Part shown: positions 6,718-17,814 of the stretch, piece by piece
How positions within the stretch are numbered: position 1 is the stretch's first letter
Layout: each line of letters begins with the position of its first letter
Virus record (IMG/VR): IMGVR_UViG_2908567220_000008
Span: 1-45,074 of that record
DNA length: 45,074 nt
Strand: one strand, 5' to 3'
From: a virus
Taxonomy: Duplodnaviria; Heunggongvirae; Uroviricota; Caudoviricetes
Position numbers and translations under genes: made by a program
The notes under the pieces: generated by a model
Told to the model about the DNA's origin: nothing
The model's input: only the letters and a program-made list of their open reading frames with translations
Database searches by the model: none

Positions 6718-6820
6718 TGAACACCCCCGTAACGTGCAGAATTTTGATAACAACAGCCGACCAGATAACGCCGCAGATCAGCAGGCAGTAAATCAGTGAA
6801 CGAATGCCTTGTTTGCTCAT
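6710..6820 (-). CDS. Small hydrophobic peptide (36 aa), putative membrane protein
   Basis: Hand-translated MSKQGIRSLIYCLLICGVIWSAVVIKILHVTGVFNG; one predicted TM helix. Its ATG overlaps the stop of the upstream small ORF. Confidence 0.4.
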   Translation of the reverse strand: MSKQGIRSLIYCLLICGVIWSAVVIKILHVTGVFNG

Positions 6821-6924
6821 TTGCCACCCCAGCACGGATAGCTAACTGCGAGAACAGCAACCAAAAACGGAACGACCTTTAACCAAAAATTACGCCATGC
6901 AGGCTTGTCTTCTTCGCGGATCAT
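6817..6924 (-). CDS. Small hydrophobic peptide (35 aa), putative membrane protein; first gene of the leftward operon
   Basis: Hand-translated MIREEDKPAWRNFWLKVVPFLVAVLAVSYPCWGGK; strong SD (aaggtgaagag) ahead of the ATG. Confidence 0.4.
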   Translation of the reverse strand: MIREEDKPAWRNFWLKVVPFLVAVLAVSYPCWGGK

Positions 6925-7006
6925 CTCTTCACCTTTGCCTTATCGCGGCTAACGGGACGTTTTGACTTCACCCCGGCGTTGCCGGTGTTGTTTGGATGAG
7001 ATGATA

Positions 7007-7082
7007 ATAGCAATGAGTATTAACCATAGCAATACGTATTGTTATTATTTGATAGCTATTGCTATTAAATCATTGATAGCTA
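7007..7082. promoter_or_regulatory. Operator-like repeat cluster (putative OL-type operator and promoter region)
   Basis: ATAGCAAT at 7007 and 7026; near-palindrome ATAGCAATACGTATTGTTAT at 7026-7045; ATAGCTATTGCTATTA at 7052-7067; TTGATAGCTA at 7073-7082. The same ATTGCTATTA core recurs between cI and cro. Confidence 0.4.
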
Positions 7083-7144
7083 AATGAATTTATTTTTTCC
7101 TATTGTGCTGTTATGCTCAAAAAAACGCCAAAAAGGGTAGCGCC

Positions 7145-7348
7145 ATGTCGAATGAGGATGAGTTTTTCGCAGAGATGCACCCGCAGATTGCGCAGGTCAT
7201 CGGGATAGCGGTTATGCAGCTGCTGGTTGAGAGGCGCGAGCCATCAAGAGAGGCGCTGATAGAGATGATTCAGGTGTTGTGGCAGGGTGACCAGGTAGAT
7301 CTGGCAGTAGAGCTGGCACTGGATGTGCTGATGCTGCGGGAAGAGTAG
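7145..7348 (+). CDS. Hypothetical small protein (67 aa)
   Basis: ATG at 7145 (MSNEDEFFAEMHPQ...), in the same frame as the longer track ORF 7103..7348. Plus-strand gene convergent with the kinase module. Confidence 0.5.
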   Translation: MSNEDEFFAEMHPQIAQVIGIAVMQLLVERREPSREALIEMIQVLWQGDQVDLAVELALDVLMLREE

Positions 7349-7354
7349 GGCAGT

Positions 7355-7377
7355 AAAAACCCGGCGCGGTGGCCGGG
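7355..7377 (-). terminator. Intrinsic terminator for the kinase/DUF3037 transcription unit
   Basis: GC hairpin cccggc-gcggtg-gccggg (7360-7377) followed on the minus strand by a U-run (plus-strand aaaaa, 7355-7359), 17 nt past the stop at 7394. Confidence 0.55.
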
Positions 7378-7393
7378 TGCTGGCAACAGTTTG

Positions 7394-8212
7394 TTAGTTA
7401 AAATTAAGGCTTTTCCCGGCAGCGACTAACATATGATCGTAGTATTTAGACATATCTTCGCTACTTAGCAAGTTGAAGACATTGTCAGCATAACCTCCAA
7501 CCAAGTTAAGTTGCTGAGAGTGCGCTTTTTCCTGAGGTGTATCAGCAGCATAAACCACAAAAGTCTTCACGCAGTTATTCCACTTGGTCTTAGCTGCGTT
7601 TATTGTCACAGCTTTAAACGCTGACTCACCCATTTTTTGGCGATTATTGGAAATCCGTAGATCTAAGGTTTCAGTTAAATGATAAATTCCATTTTTTAGT
7701 AAAAGTTCAGCATAAAGACCTTCAGATTCAGAAAGCGGATACCCCTGAACCACTTTATGCTCGCTAATTTCCTTGAGATTCTTACCCATAACTCCTTCTT
7801 TTTCAAACCTATCCTTAAGCTCGGTAATAATTCTTTTTTGAGAAACTTCAGTTCTTTTCTTCGCTCGCTCAGGTGTTATGAATAATTTATTTAATTCATT
7901 GATTTTTAATTCATATTCACGTTCATTGGCAGCATGAAATGTACCTACGCTTGACAAGGCAAAGCTACCTTGGAAAAAGAGAGAAGCCTGTTCGATGCTT
8001 AAGCCAGAAGTTAAAATAGTCTCCAGTTGCTTCTGGCTATTTTCTAATGCTTCAAGCCCAAAATCATTTGTAATAGCTTTTAGTTTAGTAGGGGTTTCTA
8101 TGACGCGCACATCTGGGCCAGATGGCTTCATGACGACAAGGCCAACGTTGATTGTCTCGGCGCGGACAGGGTTCGGTGTTATTCTGACAATACTGTATTT
8201 ATATGTATTCAT
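7394..8212 (-). CDS. DUF3037-like protein (272 aa), partner of the HipA-like kinase
   Basis: N-terminus YSIVRITPNPVRAETINVGLVVM resembles the DUF3037 family (from memory, needs HMM confirmation). ATG overlaps the kinase stop (ATGA). Visibly AT-rich. Confidence 0.6.
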   Translation of the reverse strand: MNTYKYSIVRITPNPVRAETINVGLVVMKPSGPDVRVIETPTKLKAITNDFGLEALENSQKQLETILTSGLSIEQASLFFQGSFALSSVGTFHAANEREYELKINELNKLFITPERAKKRTEVSQKRIITELKDRFEKEGVMGKNLKEISEHKVVQGYPLSESEGLYAELLLKNGIYHLTETLDLRISNNRQKMGESAFKAVTINAAKTKWNNCVKTFVVYAADTPQEKAHSQQLNLVGGYADNVFNLLSSEDMSKYYDHMLVAAGKSLNFN

Positions 8213-9033
8213 TTCAGCACCTCCCCTCTAACAGTGTCGATTCGTTTCATTCTGCCGTCGCTTGACCACCAGGTTAGCAGAGCATCCCTCTGCAAAGGAT
8301 TGATCCATGCTTCCGGCATGTCTTCAAAAATCCGTTCTATCGTGCTAGAGCTAATTCTGGATAGCTTATCCAATACAGCTTCCGCAGGCGCTTTACACGA
8401 AACATCATTATATGTCAACTGCTTGATCGCTTGCCAGCAGTTTGTGGTGTTGTAGCCCATTGGTATTAGGGCTGCGTCGGTTTTGTTCGGCCAACCCATA
8501 ACCATAGCTGCAAGGCTGAAATCGAAGGCTTGGATAGTCAGGTTTCCATATCGGTTCTTAGTGTACAGATAGTTACCAATATGCCTATCAATATTAAATA
8601 CGAACTGATCGAAGGCGTAAACTGACCATACTTGCTTCCGTAGAATAGAAGGTCCGGACATCAATTCAGCGGCAAAGTTAATTTCTTCTTGTGGCTTACT
8701 CATGGCAGCCAGGTCATATTTTGATCCAAAAAAGTGCTCTCCTGTATCCGGGTCAATCAAAACCCTACAGGCCGGGGTAGGAAGCCCACTAAATTCAGCA
8801 AGTTTAGTACATAGCCATTCTGATGCTGGAATTTGCTTTGGGTGGGGAATCCCTGTCAAAGCGGATGCATCACCATCAGAAACCCCTTTTATTGCATACT
8901 CTAAACCGTCGGAGGCCATAACTGTATGCCTTAGGTGAGCTGTGCCCATTGCTGGCTTATAATCCACAATCTCAAGACTAAACAAGGGTTCTTGAATAGT
9001 AATGTTCTTTTCAGGTTGTGAGTCTTCTTCCAT
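8209..9033 (-). CDS. HipA-like / CtkA-like atypical kinase-fold protein (274 aa)
   Basis: FNIDRHIGNYLY matches the N-x-D-x-H-x-x-N catalytic-loop pattern of HipA-family kinases (E. coli HipA has D-x-H-x-K-N). AT-rich coding sequence. Confidence 0.6.
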   Translation of the reverse strand: MEEDSQPEKNITIQEPLFSLEIVDYKPAMGTAHLRHTVMASDGLEYAIKGVSDGDASALTGIPHPKQIPASEWLCTKLAEFSGLPTPACRVLIDPDTGEHFFGSKYDLAAMSKPQEEINFAAELMSGPSILRKQVWSVYAFDQFVFNIDRHIGNYLYTKNRYGNLTIQAFDFSLAAMVMGWPNKTDAALIPMGYNTTNCWQAIKQLTYNDVSCKAPAEAVLDKLSRISSSTIERIFEDMPEAWINPLQRDALLTWWSSDGRMKRIDTVRGEVLK

Positions 9034-9143
9034 TTTTATTCCACTAATTGATTAGTGATAGATTCCACCGGGTACTTCATTGCTGCTCTGAACTTAAGCT
9101 TTATTGCCCTTCTGGGCGGCGAGGAACCGCGAAGCGCTCTTAT

Positions 9144-9169
9144 CCATGCTTCCTGTACGTCTTCGGCAT
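9144..9169. repeat. Direct repeat copy 1: duplicated 3' end of the cI gene
   Basis: ccatgcttcctgtacgtcttcggcat matches 9347-9372 at 25 of 26 positions; on the minus strand it reads MPKTYRKHG-stop, the same as the CI C-terminus. Confidence 0.7.
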
Positions 9170-9200
9170 TACCAAAAACACATCGAACTACCGGTCTGGC

Positions 9201-9320
9201 TCACTCAAAGTCATCCCGCTCATCCTTCCGCTTGAAGAAAACTTTATCCAGCCTGAGCACTATCCCAACCAGTCCGATAATCAGCAAAGTAATGAGTATT
9301 GGGATAATCAGATCAGACAT
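9201..9320 (-). CDS. Small membrane peptide (39 aa) immediately downstream of cI
   Basis: Hand-translated MSDLIIPILITLLIIGLVGIVLRLDKVFFKRKDERDDFE; SD gaggaag ahead of the ATG; flanked by the 26-bp direct repeats. Confidence 0.45.
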   Translation of the reverse strand: MSDLIIPILITLLIIGLVGIVLRLDKVFFKRKDERDDFE

Positions 9321-9342
9321 GCTTCCTCTGCGTGCTAAGGCT

Positions 9343-10041
9343 TTACCCATGCTTCCTGTACGTCTGCGGCATGCTGCCGATCACCTTGCCGAACACGAAA
9401 ACACGATTCATTTCGTCTTTCTCGATCGGGTCCCAGGCTGCATAGCTCTTGTTATCTGAGATAACCAGCAGCTTGTCCTTCATCTTCTGCAGGCGCTTGA
9501 CGTGAGCAGTGTCGTCGTACAGGAAGGCGTATATCCCGTCGCCGTCGAAGCTCTTAACGCTGATGTCGACGAACAGCAGATCACCCGGCTCAATCGTGCC
9601 GGACATGCTGTCACCCCGGACGTTGATGATCCGGATGTTCTCAGCCTTACGCCCATCGAACATGTGCCGGGCTTCAGCTGGCTCATACTCAACAGAACGG
9701 AGAATCTCGACGAACTCCTGGTTCACGATGCCCGGCCCGGCACTAACCATAAGGTCCAGCACATCAATCCTGAATGCATCAGTATCCTGGCTTTTAACCT
9801 GGGCAGCGCGAGGGAGCTGGCCGTCATCGCGCATCGGTCCATTTCCGGTTGATAACCATTCAGACCTGACGCCCAAAGCATTAGCTATCTCGACAATTTT
9901 TGTTGAACCCCTGGCGTTTCCACTCACCAGGCGCCAAATGGTTGGCTGAGCAATACCTGAGGCCTTCGCAAGCGCCCCTTGTGACATTCCAGCCGAAGCC
10001 ATGGCCTCGTTTAAACGATCTGCAAGAGTTTCTTTTTTCAT
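9343..10041 (-). CDS. cI: CI-type phage repressor (HTH_XRE plus S24 LexA-like autopeptidase)
   Basis: N-terminal HTH (MSQGALAKASGIAQPTIWRLVSG) and C-terminal S24 signature (VRGDSMSGTIEPGDLLFVD ... VKRL). Start taken at the ATG at 10041; the track ORF begins at a TTG at 10104. Confidence 0.85.
   Translation of the reverse strand: MKKETLADRLNEAMASAGMSQGALAKASGIAQPTIWRLVSGNARGSTKIVEIANALGVRSEWLSTGNGPMRDDGQLPRAAQVKSQDTDAFRIDVLDLMVSAGPGIVNQEFVEILRSVEYEPAEARHMFDGRKAENIRIINVRGDSMSGTIEPGDLLFVDISVKSFDGDGIYAFLYDDTAHVKRLQKMKDKLLVISDNKSYAAWDPIEKDEMNRVFVFGKVIGSMPQTYRKHG
9347..9372. repeat. Direct repeat copy 2 (authentic 3' end of cI)
   Basis: ccatgcttcctgtacgtctgcggcat, encoding the last residues of CI (MPQTYRKHG). 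Confidence 0.7.
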
Positions 10042-10152
10042 AATCTCAAATTTATACGCTTGCGTATTACTGGTCAAAACACGTTTTGCTATTGCTAAAA
10101 CCAATACGCATTGCTATTATCATTTTGCACCAATACTTATAGGAATTGGAAC
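10042..10152. promoter_or_regulatory. Divergent cI/cro operator-promoter region (OR-like)
   Basis: Intergenic region between divergent cI and cro containing GCTATTGCTA (10088-10097) and ATTGCTATTA (10110-10119) next to CAATACG. Confidence 0.5.
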
Positions 10153-10380
10153 ATGACGAACAAAACCATCCAGAAGGCAATTGATATCGCTGGCAGTCAG
10201 AAAAAATTGGCCGATCTGTGTGGCGTAGCGCAGCCGACAGTTTGGCGCTGGCTGCATGGCGGCGGAATTGACGCTCGCTATGTAATGAAAATCGTGTCTG
10301 CGACCAACGGCAAGATTAAGGCGGCAGAGATCAGGCCTGACCTTGCTCAGTTGCTGAGCGCGCATTCACCGGCCGCCTAA
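10153..10380 (+). CDS. cro: Cro-like HTH regulator
   Basis: 75 aa from the ATG at 10153; HTH QKKLADLCGVAQPTVWRWLHG; divergent from cI. Confidence 0.75.
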   Translation: MTNKTIQKAIDIAGSQKKLADLCGVAQPTVWRWLHGGGIDARYVMKIVSATNGKIKAAEIRPDLAQLLSAHSPAA

Positions 10381-10420
10381 CCAGCGGCCATTCCAAACAA
10401 CACCAGAGGAAGTATCACAA

Positions 10421-10642
10421 ATGGAGAGTTCAACGACACGCAACAAAGTGGAGGCTCGCAGGATAGAAAGCTGGTTACACAGCCAGATAGCTGAACTGGG
10501 AACCACGAATATCGCCAAAGTGGCCGGAGTGAATAAGTCGACGGTGAGTCGCTGGCGGGAAAGTCTGCTGCCGAACATGTCGCTGCTGCTGGCCATCCTG
10601 ATTTCTAACAGGCCGGGAGAGAAAGGTGATTTTGAAGCATGA
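10421..10642 (+). CDS. cII: CII-like transcriptional activator
   Basis: 73 aa; alignable by eye to lambda CII (RIESWLHSQIAELGTTNIAKVAGVNKSTVSRWRESLLPNMSLLLAIL versus lambda ALRIESALLNKIAMLGTEKTAEAVGVDKSQISRWKRDWIPKFSMLLAVL). Confidence 0.8.
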   Translation: MESSTTRNKVEARRIESWLHSQIAELGTTNIAKVAGVNKSTVSRWRESLLPNMSLLLAILISNRPGEKGDFEA

Positions 10643-16023: not shown

Positions 16024-16160
16024 GCCGTGACGTTATCGAACGCATCCGCGACCGCTGGCAAAAGCTTCGCCTCCTGCGTAGCCGCGGCACCGTGCTGGTC
16101 GACTACAAAATATTACGCAATTTCGTCCGTATCTATAAGCGCCTGGGAGAAGCAGCATGA
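16020..16160 (+). CDS. Small protein (46 aa), YlcG-like by position
   Basis: Hand-translated [46 protein letters not shown]; overlaps the rusA stop and the Q start. Confidence 0.45.
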
Positions 16161-16846
16161 CAGCTCAATACTTGGAATTTGTTCGCCAGCAGCTGATAGT
16201 GGCCACCGCCGATCTGAGTGGTGCGACGAAAGGGCAACTGGTAGCTTTTGCAGAGAACGCGCAATTTACCGCTACGGCGCGCAGCCGTGGCCGGAAGAAG
16301 GTGTATAGCGAGGTGAAGCAAAAAATGGTTAACCCGGATGGACCGCCGATGAGCGGCAGCCAGTGCCGCGCTAAGGGTTCCTCAATCGCTCTCGTTCTGC
16401 CCGTTGAATACTCGACAGCCAGCTGGCGCCGCGCCCTCCTGTCGCTGGAAGACCACCAGAAATCCTGGTTGCTGTGGAACTACAGCGACAATATCCGCTT
16501 TGAGTATCAGGTAGCGATAACACAGTGGGCATGGGAAGAATTCCGTGATCAACTCGGCGCTAAGAAAGTGGCCGGCAAGACGATGGAGCGGCTGAAGAAA
16601 CTGATATGGCTGGCGGCACAGGACGTGAAAGCAGAGCTGGCGGGTAAGTATGTATATCAGCACCAGGACCTTGCAGCCCTGTGTGGCGTTAAGCCTGATA
16701 ACTGGTGCCATAACTACGCTGATTACTGGCGGGCTATGTGCGCCATTTTTAAGCGGCTTGATAGCGACTCTCTTCTCTGTGCTGTGAGAACACGATCACA
16801 ACAAAAAGCGACTTTTTCGCAGCAGGGTCTTGCAAAAGTCAATTAA
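16157..16846 (+). CDS. Late-gene antiterminator Q-like protein
   Basis: 229 aa, last gene before the lysis region and followed by a short terminated leader; resembles lambdoid Q-family antiterminators (recalled). Confidence 0.65.
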   Translation: MTAQYLEFVRQQLIVATADLSGATKGQLVAFAENAQFTATARSRGRKKVYSEVKQKMVNPDGPPMSGSQCRAKGSSIALVLPVEYSTASWRRALLSLEDHQKSWLLWNYSDNIRFEYQVAITQWAWEEFRDQLGAKKVAGKTMERLKKLIWLAAQDVKAELAGKYVYQHQDLAALCGVKPDNWCHNYADYWRAMCAIFKRLDSDSLLCAVRTRSQQKATFSQQGLAKVN

Positions 16847-16935
16847 ATACGTCATATTTGAGTCTACTTTGATATGCTGCCTTAACTTTAAGTGGCGGCA
16901 TGAAGATGATAGTCATATACCAGTTTGTAAAATTA

Positions 16936-16962
16936 GCCTCGGCAATCCGCCGGGGCTTTTTT
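16936..16962 (+). terminator. Intrinsic terminator (tR'-like) downstream of Q
   Basis: Stem gcctcggc / gccggggc (one mismatch), loop aatcc, then tttttt. Confidence 0.5.
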
Positions 16963-17499: not shown

Positions 17500-17574
17500 G
17501 GGTCAGAAGCACAGCGGTTGTGCGTTCGGCTGTTAACCGAATGGTCGAAGGTTCGAATCCTTCCTGTCCCGCCA
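17500..17574 (+). tRNA. tRNA-like gene, anticodon GTT (Asn) by manual folding
   Basis: 75 nt with encoded CCA; T arm gaagg-ttcgaat-ccttc; anticodon loop ctGTTaa; acceptor stem has one T-T mismatch, so it may be atypical or a pseudo-tRNA. Confidence 0.5.
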
Positions 17575-17579
17575 AATTA

Positions 17580-17656
17580 GCGCCATTAGCTCAACCGGAG
17601 AGAGCAATAGCCTTCTAAGCTATCGGTTTCAGGTTCGAGTCCTGAATGGTGCACCA
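17580..17656 (+). tRNA. tRNA-Arg (anticodon TCT)
   Basis: 77 nt cloverleaf folded by hand: acceptor gcgccat/atggtgc, D stem gctc/gagc, anticodon stem atagc/gctat with loop ctTCTaa, T arm tcagg-ttcgagt-cctga, encoded CCA. Confidence 0.75.
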
Positions 17657-17790
17657 GATAATGGCCTGACCTGATAACGGGTTCATACCCCAACTTATCA
17701 GGGGCGTTGCTGCAACAGCGTCACAGGCCGCCAGACCCAGCTAGGGTATTTTCGGTCATCACCGACATTGCTATTACCCTCATGCTTATT

Positions 17791-17814
17791 GCCTGCCTAA
17801 CCGCAGGCTTTTTT
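17791..17814 (+). terminator. Intrinsic terminator after the tRNA pair
   Basis: Stem gcctgc / gcaggc, loop ctaacc, then tttttt. Confidence 0.5.

Follow-up and report, generated by a model that had tools for sequence, protein, structure and literature searches.

Why does one short sequence recur in two separate regions of a phage genome, 3.05 kb apart and on either side of a repressor gene, and does this recurrence mark the places where the repressor would bind? The locus that raises this question lies in a stretch of 45,074 nucleotides (IMG/VR record IMGVR_UViG_2908567220_000008, positions 1 to 45,074; Caudoviricetes), which we call the window and which is a lambdoid Klebsiella prophage, its positions 6800-10450 matching 28 phage records, 26 of them of Klebsiella phages. 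An earlier note on this DNA had proposed that a motif shared by the region between cI and cro and by a second cluster at 7007-7082, with a third copy near the late terminator, represents a lambda-like arrangement of left and right operators (OL and OR), bound by the same CI and flanking a block formed by cI and a kinase gene. Judging from the sequence and from its relatives, it is highly probable that the segments 7004-7090 and 10049-10120 serve this prophage as its OL and OR control regions. The arrangement appears to be that of an ordinary lambdoid immunity switch; for this immunity type, the operators have apparently not been mapped so far.

The gene identities at the locus agree with the names that the earlier note had given to the intergenic region and to the cI-kinase block, as judged by Pfam and PHROG matches. 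The cI gene (9343-10041, minus strand) encodes a repressor of 232 residues with a helix-turn-helix (HTH) and an S24 peptidase domain, cro (10153-10380, plus strand) encodes 75 residues that match Pfam YdaS_toxin and P22_Cro, and the two genes diverge from the OR cluster, which occupies an intergenic control region of 111 bp.

Over the whole 45-kb window, the 10-mer ATTGCTATTA has four matches against 0.09 expected, and none of 100 shuffled sequences reached four copies, so the enrichment over shuffled sequence that the earlier note had suggested examining is indeed found. Three copies lie on the plus strand, at 7058, 10110 and 17767, exactly where they had been reported; a fourth, at 7005-7014 on the minus strand, had been overlooked. 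The shorter 8-mer core (ATTGCTAT, or ATAGCAAT on the other strand) has seven matches in the window against 1.48 expected, and its recurrence in the cI-cro intergenic region and in the 7007-7082 cluster could be verified at every coordinate. Four of the seven copies are inside the control regions (at 7007, 7026, 7058 and 10110) and the others, at 65, 17767 and 42853, are no more numerous than chance predicts. In the 20-bp near-palindrome reported at 7026-7045 (ATAGCAATACGTATTGTTAT), 9 of the 10 pairs are matched. The motif might have been a common genomic word, which the earlier note had regarded as fatal to its proposal, but outside the operator clusters, related enterobacterial loci totalling 260 kb contain about 9 copies of the 8-mer, where about 8 would be expected of a random 8-mer. 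A longer probe, the 16-mer AATACGCATTGCTATT with at most 3 mismatches allowed, gives five matches against 0.38 expected, all of them in 7006-7046 or 10078-10118. In a comparison free of any motif, the best 7-mer partner of OR in the 45 kb is the 90-bp segment starting at 7001, with 22 shared 7-mers against 8 for the runner-up.

These matches can be described by an operator model of 16 bp, with arms AATA(C/G)N and N(G/C)TATT on either side of 4 variable bp (AATAsN-N4-NsTATT). The best site is AATACGCATTGCTATT itself (AATACG-CATT-GCTATT), at 10103-10118, which we take as the reference (16/16) and as the predicted OR1. The predicted OR2 (10078-10093, AACACG-TTTT-GCTATT) agrees with it at 13 of 16 positions and the predicted OR3 (10053-10068, TATACG-CTTG-CGTATT) at 11 of 16, and the three are spaced in exact 25-bp phase. 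OR3 is identical in 14 of the 16 relatives' sequences examined, and the sole position of OR2 that varies among relatives falls in the central 4 bp. Read with this model, the 8-mer comprises the better-conserved arm, together with a portion of the centre, of a predicted 16-bp pseudo-palindromic operator, and is not the whole operator. Beside these sites, in the cro leader, there is a further 20-bp near-palindrome (10130-10149, CCAATACTTATAGGAATTGG), which overlaps the Shine-Dalgarno sequence, is conserved across genera and is operator-like in pairing an AATAC arm with a GAATT arm; it may serve CI or Cro as an additional site, or be just a conserved leader.

A scan with consensus hexamers places three predicted promoters over the two clusters, overlapping the operators in the lambda pattern. 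The predicted pR (10092-10120, plus strand) consists of TTGCTA, a 17-bp spacer and the extended -10 TGcTATTAT. The predicted pL (7004-7032, minus strand) has the identical architecture (TTGCTA-17-TATTAT with the TG extension), with its -35 at 7032-7027 and its -10 hexamer at 7009-7004. The predicted pRM (10049-10077, minus strand) has the -35 TTGACC at 10077-10072, a 17-bp spacer and the -10 TAAATT at 10054-10049. With this placement, the first operator of each cluster covers the -10 of its lytic promoter and the second one touches the -35: OR1 overlaps the spacer and -10 of pR, and OR2 abuts the -35 of pRM and overlaps that of pR by 2 bp. OR3, in turn, overlaps the spacer and the -10 of pRM. 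The 10-mer ATTGCTATTA is thus a predicted operator arm fused to an extended -10, and its exact form recurs in part because it holds the TGcTATTAT of the paralogous pL and pR. The expected start of the pRM transcript is close to the cI ATG (10041), so that this transcript may be leaderless, as in lambda.

The OL cluster repeats this geometry, OL1, OL2 and pL being the exact mirror image of OR1, OR2 and pR. The predicted OL1 (7006-7021, AATACTCATTGCTATT on the minus strand) has a single mismatch to OR1 and overlaps the spacer and -10 of pL; all homoimmune loci have kept it, and what differences there are fall mostly in the central 4 bp. The predicted OL2 (7031-7046, AATACGTATTGTTATT) overlaps the -35 of pL by 2 bp; an alternative register, 7025-7040, is available, and the two registers jointly form the near-palindrome at 7026-7045. 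In the register 7031-7046, both outer arms are kept in all relatives and the spacing between the first and the second operator is 25 bp, as at OR. The predicted OL3 (7051-7066, GATAGC-TATT-GCTATT) has arms, AATAGC and GCTATT, which recur in relatives around a variable centre. A possible fourth site follows 24 bp further on (7075-7090, GATAGC-TAAA-TGAATT), within an immunity-specific block (7073-7096, TTGATAGCTAAATGAATTTATTTT) that all homoimmune loci retain, whatever the genus, and that the heteroimmune phage ST101-KPC2phi6.1 has replaced; the block could hold a fourth OL operator. Two other candidates were rejected. A 20-bp operator of the form ATAGCAAT-N4-ATTGCTAT suits OL2 and has a poor left arm at OR1, OR2 and OL1; the 16-mer was preferred because it fits all six sites and leaves the variable positions in the centre. 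A further match at 9285-9300 (4 mismatches to OR1) lies inside an open reading frame (ORF) of 39 residues and is conserved in heteroimmune phages too, which points to coding conservation and not to an operator.

If these sites serve the repressor, they should change with its DNA-binding domain, and they do so in the loci compared. We scanned bacterial genomes (one per species) and obtained 21 loci with relatives of this CI. In all 17 loci in which the N-terminal domain of CI is at least 80% identical to that of the window, OR1 is found 62-77 bp upstream of cI and a cluster of the motif lies 0.16-2.5 kb beyond cI; the genera include Raoultella, Citrobacter, Enterobacter, Kluyvera, Yokenella and Scandinavium, among others. 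Two of the 17 (L028 and L029) carry the motif with a C-terminal domain that is only 46% identical. The motif is absent from all four loci with a related C-terminal domain and a different or absent N-terminal domain (L027, L030, L032 and L034). All 12 motif-bearing loci with aligned N-terminal domains share the recognition helix QPTIWRL, which differs in L027. The phage loci, eight in number, tell the same story, and in the 21 genome loci and these eight together the motif follows the N-terminal and not the C-terminal domain of CI. Both clusters are kept in the homoimmune phages RAH1, ST11-VIM1phi8.2 and 6 LV-2017, while in three heteroimmune phages (L005, L006 and L007) homology breaks off at 6999-7011 and resumes at 10372, where cro ends. 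A natural domain swap is seen in ST101-KPC2phi6.1 (L004): this phage retains the C-terminal domain of CI and the two OL flanks, has a different HTH, and has exactly the block 7003-7090 exchanged for unrelated repeats, which rank first as 7-mer partner of the phage's own OR. Alignments across genera show invariant operator arms, and what varies are the central 4 bp and the spacers between operators.

CI matches Pfam Peptidase_S24 (7.6e-18), HTH_3 and Phage_CI_repr, as well as PHROG 4; besides the N-terminal recognition helix QPTIWRL, it has in its S24 domain Ala101-Gly102, Ser145 and Lys182. The closest solved structure to its HTH by sequence is the N-terminal domain of the phage 434 repressor (PDB 1per, 2or1 and 1r69; E about 1e-4). 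The recognition helix of Cro, QPTVWRW, is nearly identical to that of CI, and the two HTH regions share 44% identity over 48 residues; the near-shared helix is also present in the phages BTP1 and Lambda_4C10 and not in ST101-KPC2phi6.1.

Several points weigh against the assignment of these segments as OL and OR. The operator is only weakly symmetric, its arms AATACG and AATAGC differing at 2 of 6 positions. OL3 is poorly conserved, the least so of the OL sites, and the exact register of OL2 (7025-7040 or 7031-7046) is ambiguous. The promoter scan gives 7 matches in the region against 5.6 expected, which is not enriched over shuffled sequences, so that the scan taken alone is weak evidence and the promoters remain predictions. 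Our literature search turned up no data on binding, footprints or transcription starts for phages of this immunity type. Finally, part of the co-variation could reflect linkage within a mosaic module. The cargo between cI and OL varies from locus to locus, however, and the type of OL nevertheless agrees with the HTH type in every case, which makes linkage alone a poor explanation.

Two other explanations of the repeated sequence have to be weighed against repressor operators. The repeat could be nothing but duplicated sigma-70 promoter sequence, shared by the paralogous pL and pR (TTGCTA-17-TGcTATTAT) with no part played by repressor recognition; indeed, the 10-mer copies at 7005 (minus) and 10110 (plus) each include the TG of a predicted promoter and the greater part of its -10 hexamer, and over about 43 bp pL and pR agree at almost every base. 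However, the motif is also present at OR2, OR3, OL2 and OL3, where it is not that promoter element, and the conservation reaches the AATAC arm, located in the spacer, a part that is not read by sigma-70. The block is, moreover, swapped as a whole whenever the HTH of CI changes and kept when the C-terminal domain alone changes, and promoter hexamers need not follow the repressor type; we regard this explanation as very unlikely. Just as little credence attaches to the notion that 7004-7090 is not a classical OL and mainly controls the small gene that runs rightward from it (7145-7348) or a bidirectional promoter pair. In its favor, a rightward promoter-like site at 7020-7048 overlaps the palindrome, the conserved sequence TGnTATGCTCAAAAAAAC precedes the Shine-Dalgarno sequence and ATG of a small rightward ORF after OL in many relatives, and the counterpart of this ORF in BTP1 is moderately expressed in lysogens. 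Against it stand the exact mirror symmetry of OL1/OL2/pL with OR1/OR2/pR and the order in BTP1, where the same cluster is followed leftward by a nutL boxA and by N. The TGnTATGCT element also occurs in the heteroimmune L004 and L030, which makes it part of the flank and not of the immunity-specific block.

The copy at 17767 calls for separate treatment, given that the earlier note had included it, as the copy near the late terminator, in the motif system. A third functional CI site at this position, which would couple immunity to late or lysis expression, could be argued for from the exact match to the 10-mer (the probability that 45 kb contain one or more additional copies by chance being about 0.09) and from its place 15 bp upstream of the terminator that precedes the holin gene. 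The corresponding 16-mer (CACCGACATTGCTATT), however, matches the operator at only 11 of 16 positions, having the GCTATT arm and lacking AATAC, and the sequence is identical base for base in four phages with unrelated repressors and operators. Outside OL and OR, moreover, the 8-mer is no more frequent than chance would have it (3 copies, with 1.48 expected in the whole window), and a candidate late promoter lies 850 bp upstream, at 16906-16933. A CI site at 17767 is accordingly extremely improbable, and the copy is best read, on its sequence context, as a chance match in a conserved late-region spacer and not as an operator. The copy itself lies beyond tRNA-Asn and tRNA-Arg (17500-17656), flanked by a small hairpin and by the strong terminator 17791-17808, in the spacer that leads to the holin gene. 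The same features (a single arm, identity in heteroimmune phages and the late promoter candidate upstream) led us to reject the copy as the late promoter pR' as well; that candidate (ATGATA-16-TAAAAT) directly follows a Q-like gene (16157-16846, by PHROG) and has its own terminator at 16935-16957. The proposal of a lambda-like OL and OR recognized by one CI is thus strongly supported by the gene order, the two clusters and the co-variation with the CI HTH, and its extension to 17767 falls.

How does this locus compare with immunity regions already described? In lambda, the order is OL1-3, rexBA-cI, OR1-3 and cro. The window shares with it the divergent cI and cro, three predicted OR operators with the same placement relative to the predicted pR and pRM, a second predicted operator triplet at pL, 2-3 kb away, a repressor with HTH and S24 domains, a probably leaderless pRM transcript, and cargo genes between cI and OL that probably go with the cI transcript and have a terminator at their end. 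It differs from lambda in the operator, which is unrelated (TATCACCGCCAGTGGTA, 17 bp, in lambda; AATACGCATTGCTATT, 16 bp, here), in the operator spacing (25/25 bp here and 24/23 bp in lambda), in having a HipA-like kinase and a DUF3037 protein instead of RexAB, and in the extra small rightward ORF beside OL; furthermore, an N homologue is not evident left of OL within the window. The 434 operator is 14 bp long (ACAAGAAAGTTTGT) and unrelated to the present one; as in 434, repressor and Cro have similar recognition helices; the sequence similarity to 434 is low.

The nearest relatives outside Klebsiella are the P22-like Salmonella phages ST104, BTP1, ST160 and SE1 and the E. coli phages Lambda_4C10, 4A7, Perceval and PhiR30_1, in which the N-terminal domain of CI is 84-87% identical. 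These phages have the same CI recognition helix QPTIWRL, the same Cro recognition helix and the same operator family and layout at OR and OL; in BTP1, OR1 is AATACTAATTGCTATT, OR2 is identical to that of the window and the OL sites belong to the same family. They differ from the window in their virion and replication modules, in OL3 and in the spacer sequences. Leftward of its OL cluster, BTP1 has the boxA-like sequence CGCTCTTTAAC (nutL boxA) and then the N gene, and ST104 also has N and nutL. As in the window, these phages have cargo downstream of cI, which in BTP1 is BstA. The ST104 record names the CI and Cro of HK022 as similar to its own; we rejected HK022 as a phage of the same immunity, since the identity of its CI is only 40% and the motif has no site in the HK022 immunity region. 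HK022 CI, with its OL and OR, was reportedly the subject of work by Carlson and Little in 1993. HK022 has a lambdoid switch with cooperative binding, in which OL and OR lie about 700 bp apart, compared with 3.05 kb here. Searching the literature for these operator sequences, and for any mapping of operators in ST104 or BTP1, we met only unrelated 12-mer matches and no operator description. Casjens and colleagues list ST104 as a repressor specificity of its own (PMC2629481), and the identity of 84% between the CI N-terminal domains of the window and of ST104 and BTP1 is below the value of at least 92% in the DNA-binding domain that serves as a rule of thumb for the same specificity (PMC2629481). 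RNA sequencing of BTP1 lysogens gave about 100-290 transcripts per million (TPM) for cI and its downstream cargo, and about 4-37 for cro and N (PMC7067206); bstA is transcribed from the cI promoter (PMC7067206).

Taken together with the lambda precedent, the OL and OR assignment suggests the following switch. Dimers of CI, which would be cleavable in the SOS response, and Cro would both bind the 16-bp pseudo-palindromic operators. The promoter pR would drive cro, cII and the replication genes, and pL the leftward kil-gam-bet operon. At OR, OR1 would cover the -10 and spacer of pR, OR2 would sit between the -35 elements of pR and pRM, and OR3 would cover the -10 of pRM, so that CI at OR1 and OR2, perhaps bound cooperatively, would silence cro, cII and replication and be in a position to stimulate its own promoter; occupancy of OR3 would then lead to negative autoregulation of cI. 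At OL, OL1 and OL2 would mirror on pL what OR1 and OR2 do on pR, with OL3, and perhaps the fourth site, behind them. Upon RecA-stimulated autocleavage of CI, both promoters would be released. A lambda-style CI loop over the 3.05 kb between OL and OR is plausible; such looping has been demonstrated in lambda, HK022 and phiKO2 and is regarded as general (PMC8053113).

Transcription from pRM would extend through cI, the 39-residue ORF (9201-9320, minus strand, between the kinase gene and cI) and the cargo genes to an intrinsic terminator at 7378-7359. This terminator (7359-7378, minus strand) has a 7-bp stem with 6 GC pairs followed by TTTTT and closes the leftward operon of cI and cargo right before OL. 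The cargo consists, besides the 39-residue ORF, of a gene for a HipA-like kinase (8209-9033, minus strand; Pfam HipA_2, 1.2e-6) and of a DUF3037 gene (7394-8212, minus strand; Pfam), both in the position of rexAB; the region 7394-9320 matches PHROGs 3162 and 5137, the kinase and DUF3037 proteins have weak matches to the PADLOC candidate system PDC-M66A/B, and the genes are probably co-transcribed with cI. In this position, relatives of the same immunity have BstA or a ParA-like gene, and the heteroimmune ST101-KPC2phi6.1 has RexAB. A sequence of about 30 bp (containing CCATGCTTCCTGTACGTCT) occurs twice (9137-9169 and 9344-9372), just downstream of cI and again downstream of the 39-residue ORF, and this repeat appeared as secondary BLAST matches in several relatives. 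On the right, cro is followed by cII (10421-10642, plus strand), and Pfam and PHROG matches show that both CII and a Q-like protein are encoded. On the left of the 7004-7090 cluster lie leftward early genes whose homologues are annotated as Gam, Bet and Kil. A GC-rich hairpin (CCGGC GTT GCCGG, 6973-6985), terminator-like on the plus strand, lies about 10-25 nucleotides into the predicted pL transcript; we rejected it as an analogue of nutL or boxB, its conservation being confined to close Klebsiella relatives.

What may be mildly unusual here is OL alone, with its possible fourth site, a flanking rightward promoter-like element and a converging small ORF. The promoter-like site at 7020-7048 has the form TTAACC-17-TGtTATTAT, and the conserved element TGnTATGCTCAAAAAAAC (7109-7127, plus strand) resembles an extended -10 plus leader, with a Shine-Dalgarno sequence and an ATG about 20 nucleotides further on. 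The ORF that starts there (7145-7348, plus strand; 67 residues; phrog_3946, of unknown function) converges on the operon of cI and cargo. The element adjoins OL in homoimmune as well as heteroimmune loci, ahead of differing small helical ORFs which have only a loose resemblance by eye. In BTP1, the counterpart is the FumD/YdhZ-like STMMW_03522, with a TPM of about 17-53 in lysogens; homology of the ORF at 7145-7348 to it was rejected, the pairwise similarity being undetectable and an NCBIfam hit absent. It is conceivable, though rather unlikely, that OL is a four-site bidirectional control region in which OL3 and the putative OL4 (7051-7090) govern a rightward promoter and leader at TGnTATGCTCAAAAAAAC as well as pL, the small FumD/YdhZ-like or phrog_3946 protein being expressed from a transcript that converges on the operon of cI and defence genes. 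If this were true, a four-site OL would add a second output tuned by CI, absent in lambda, and possibly transcriptional interference against cI and its cargo.

The understanding of lambdoid switches is unchanged by these results; their use lies in the operator definition AATAsN-N4-NsTATT, which, with its six named sites and three predicted promoters, serves the annotation of a widespread and uncharacterized immunity type, common to Klebsiella prophages, to Salmonella BTP1 and ST104 and to several lambdoid phages of E. coli. From this definition, homoimmunity and cross-repression could be predicted among the prophages of clinical Klebsiella and Salmonella. It also delimits the cargo slot in the rex position, occupied here by a candidate defence pair of HipA-like kinase and DUF3037 protein, and would enable reporters and inducible switches that are orthogonal to lambda.

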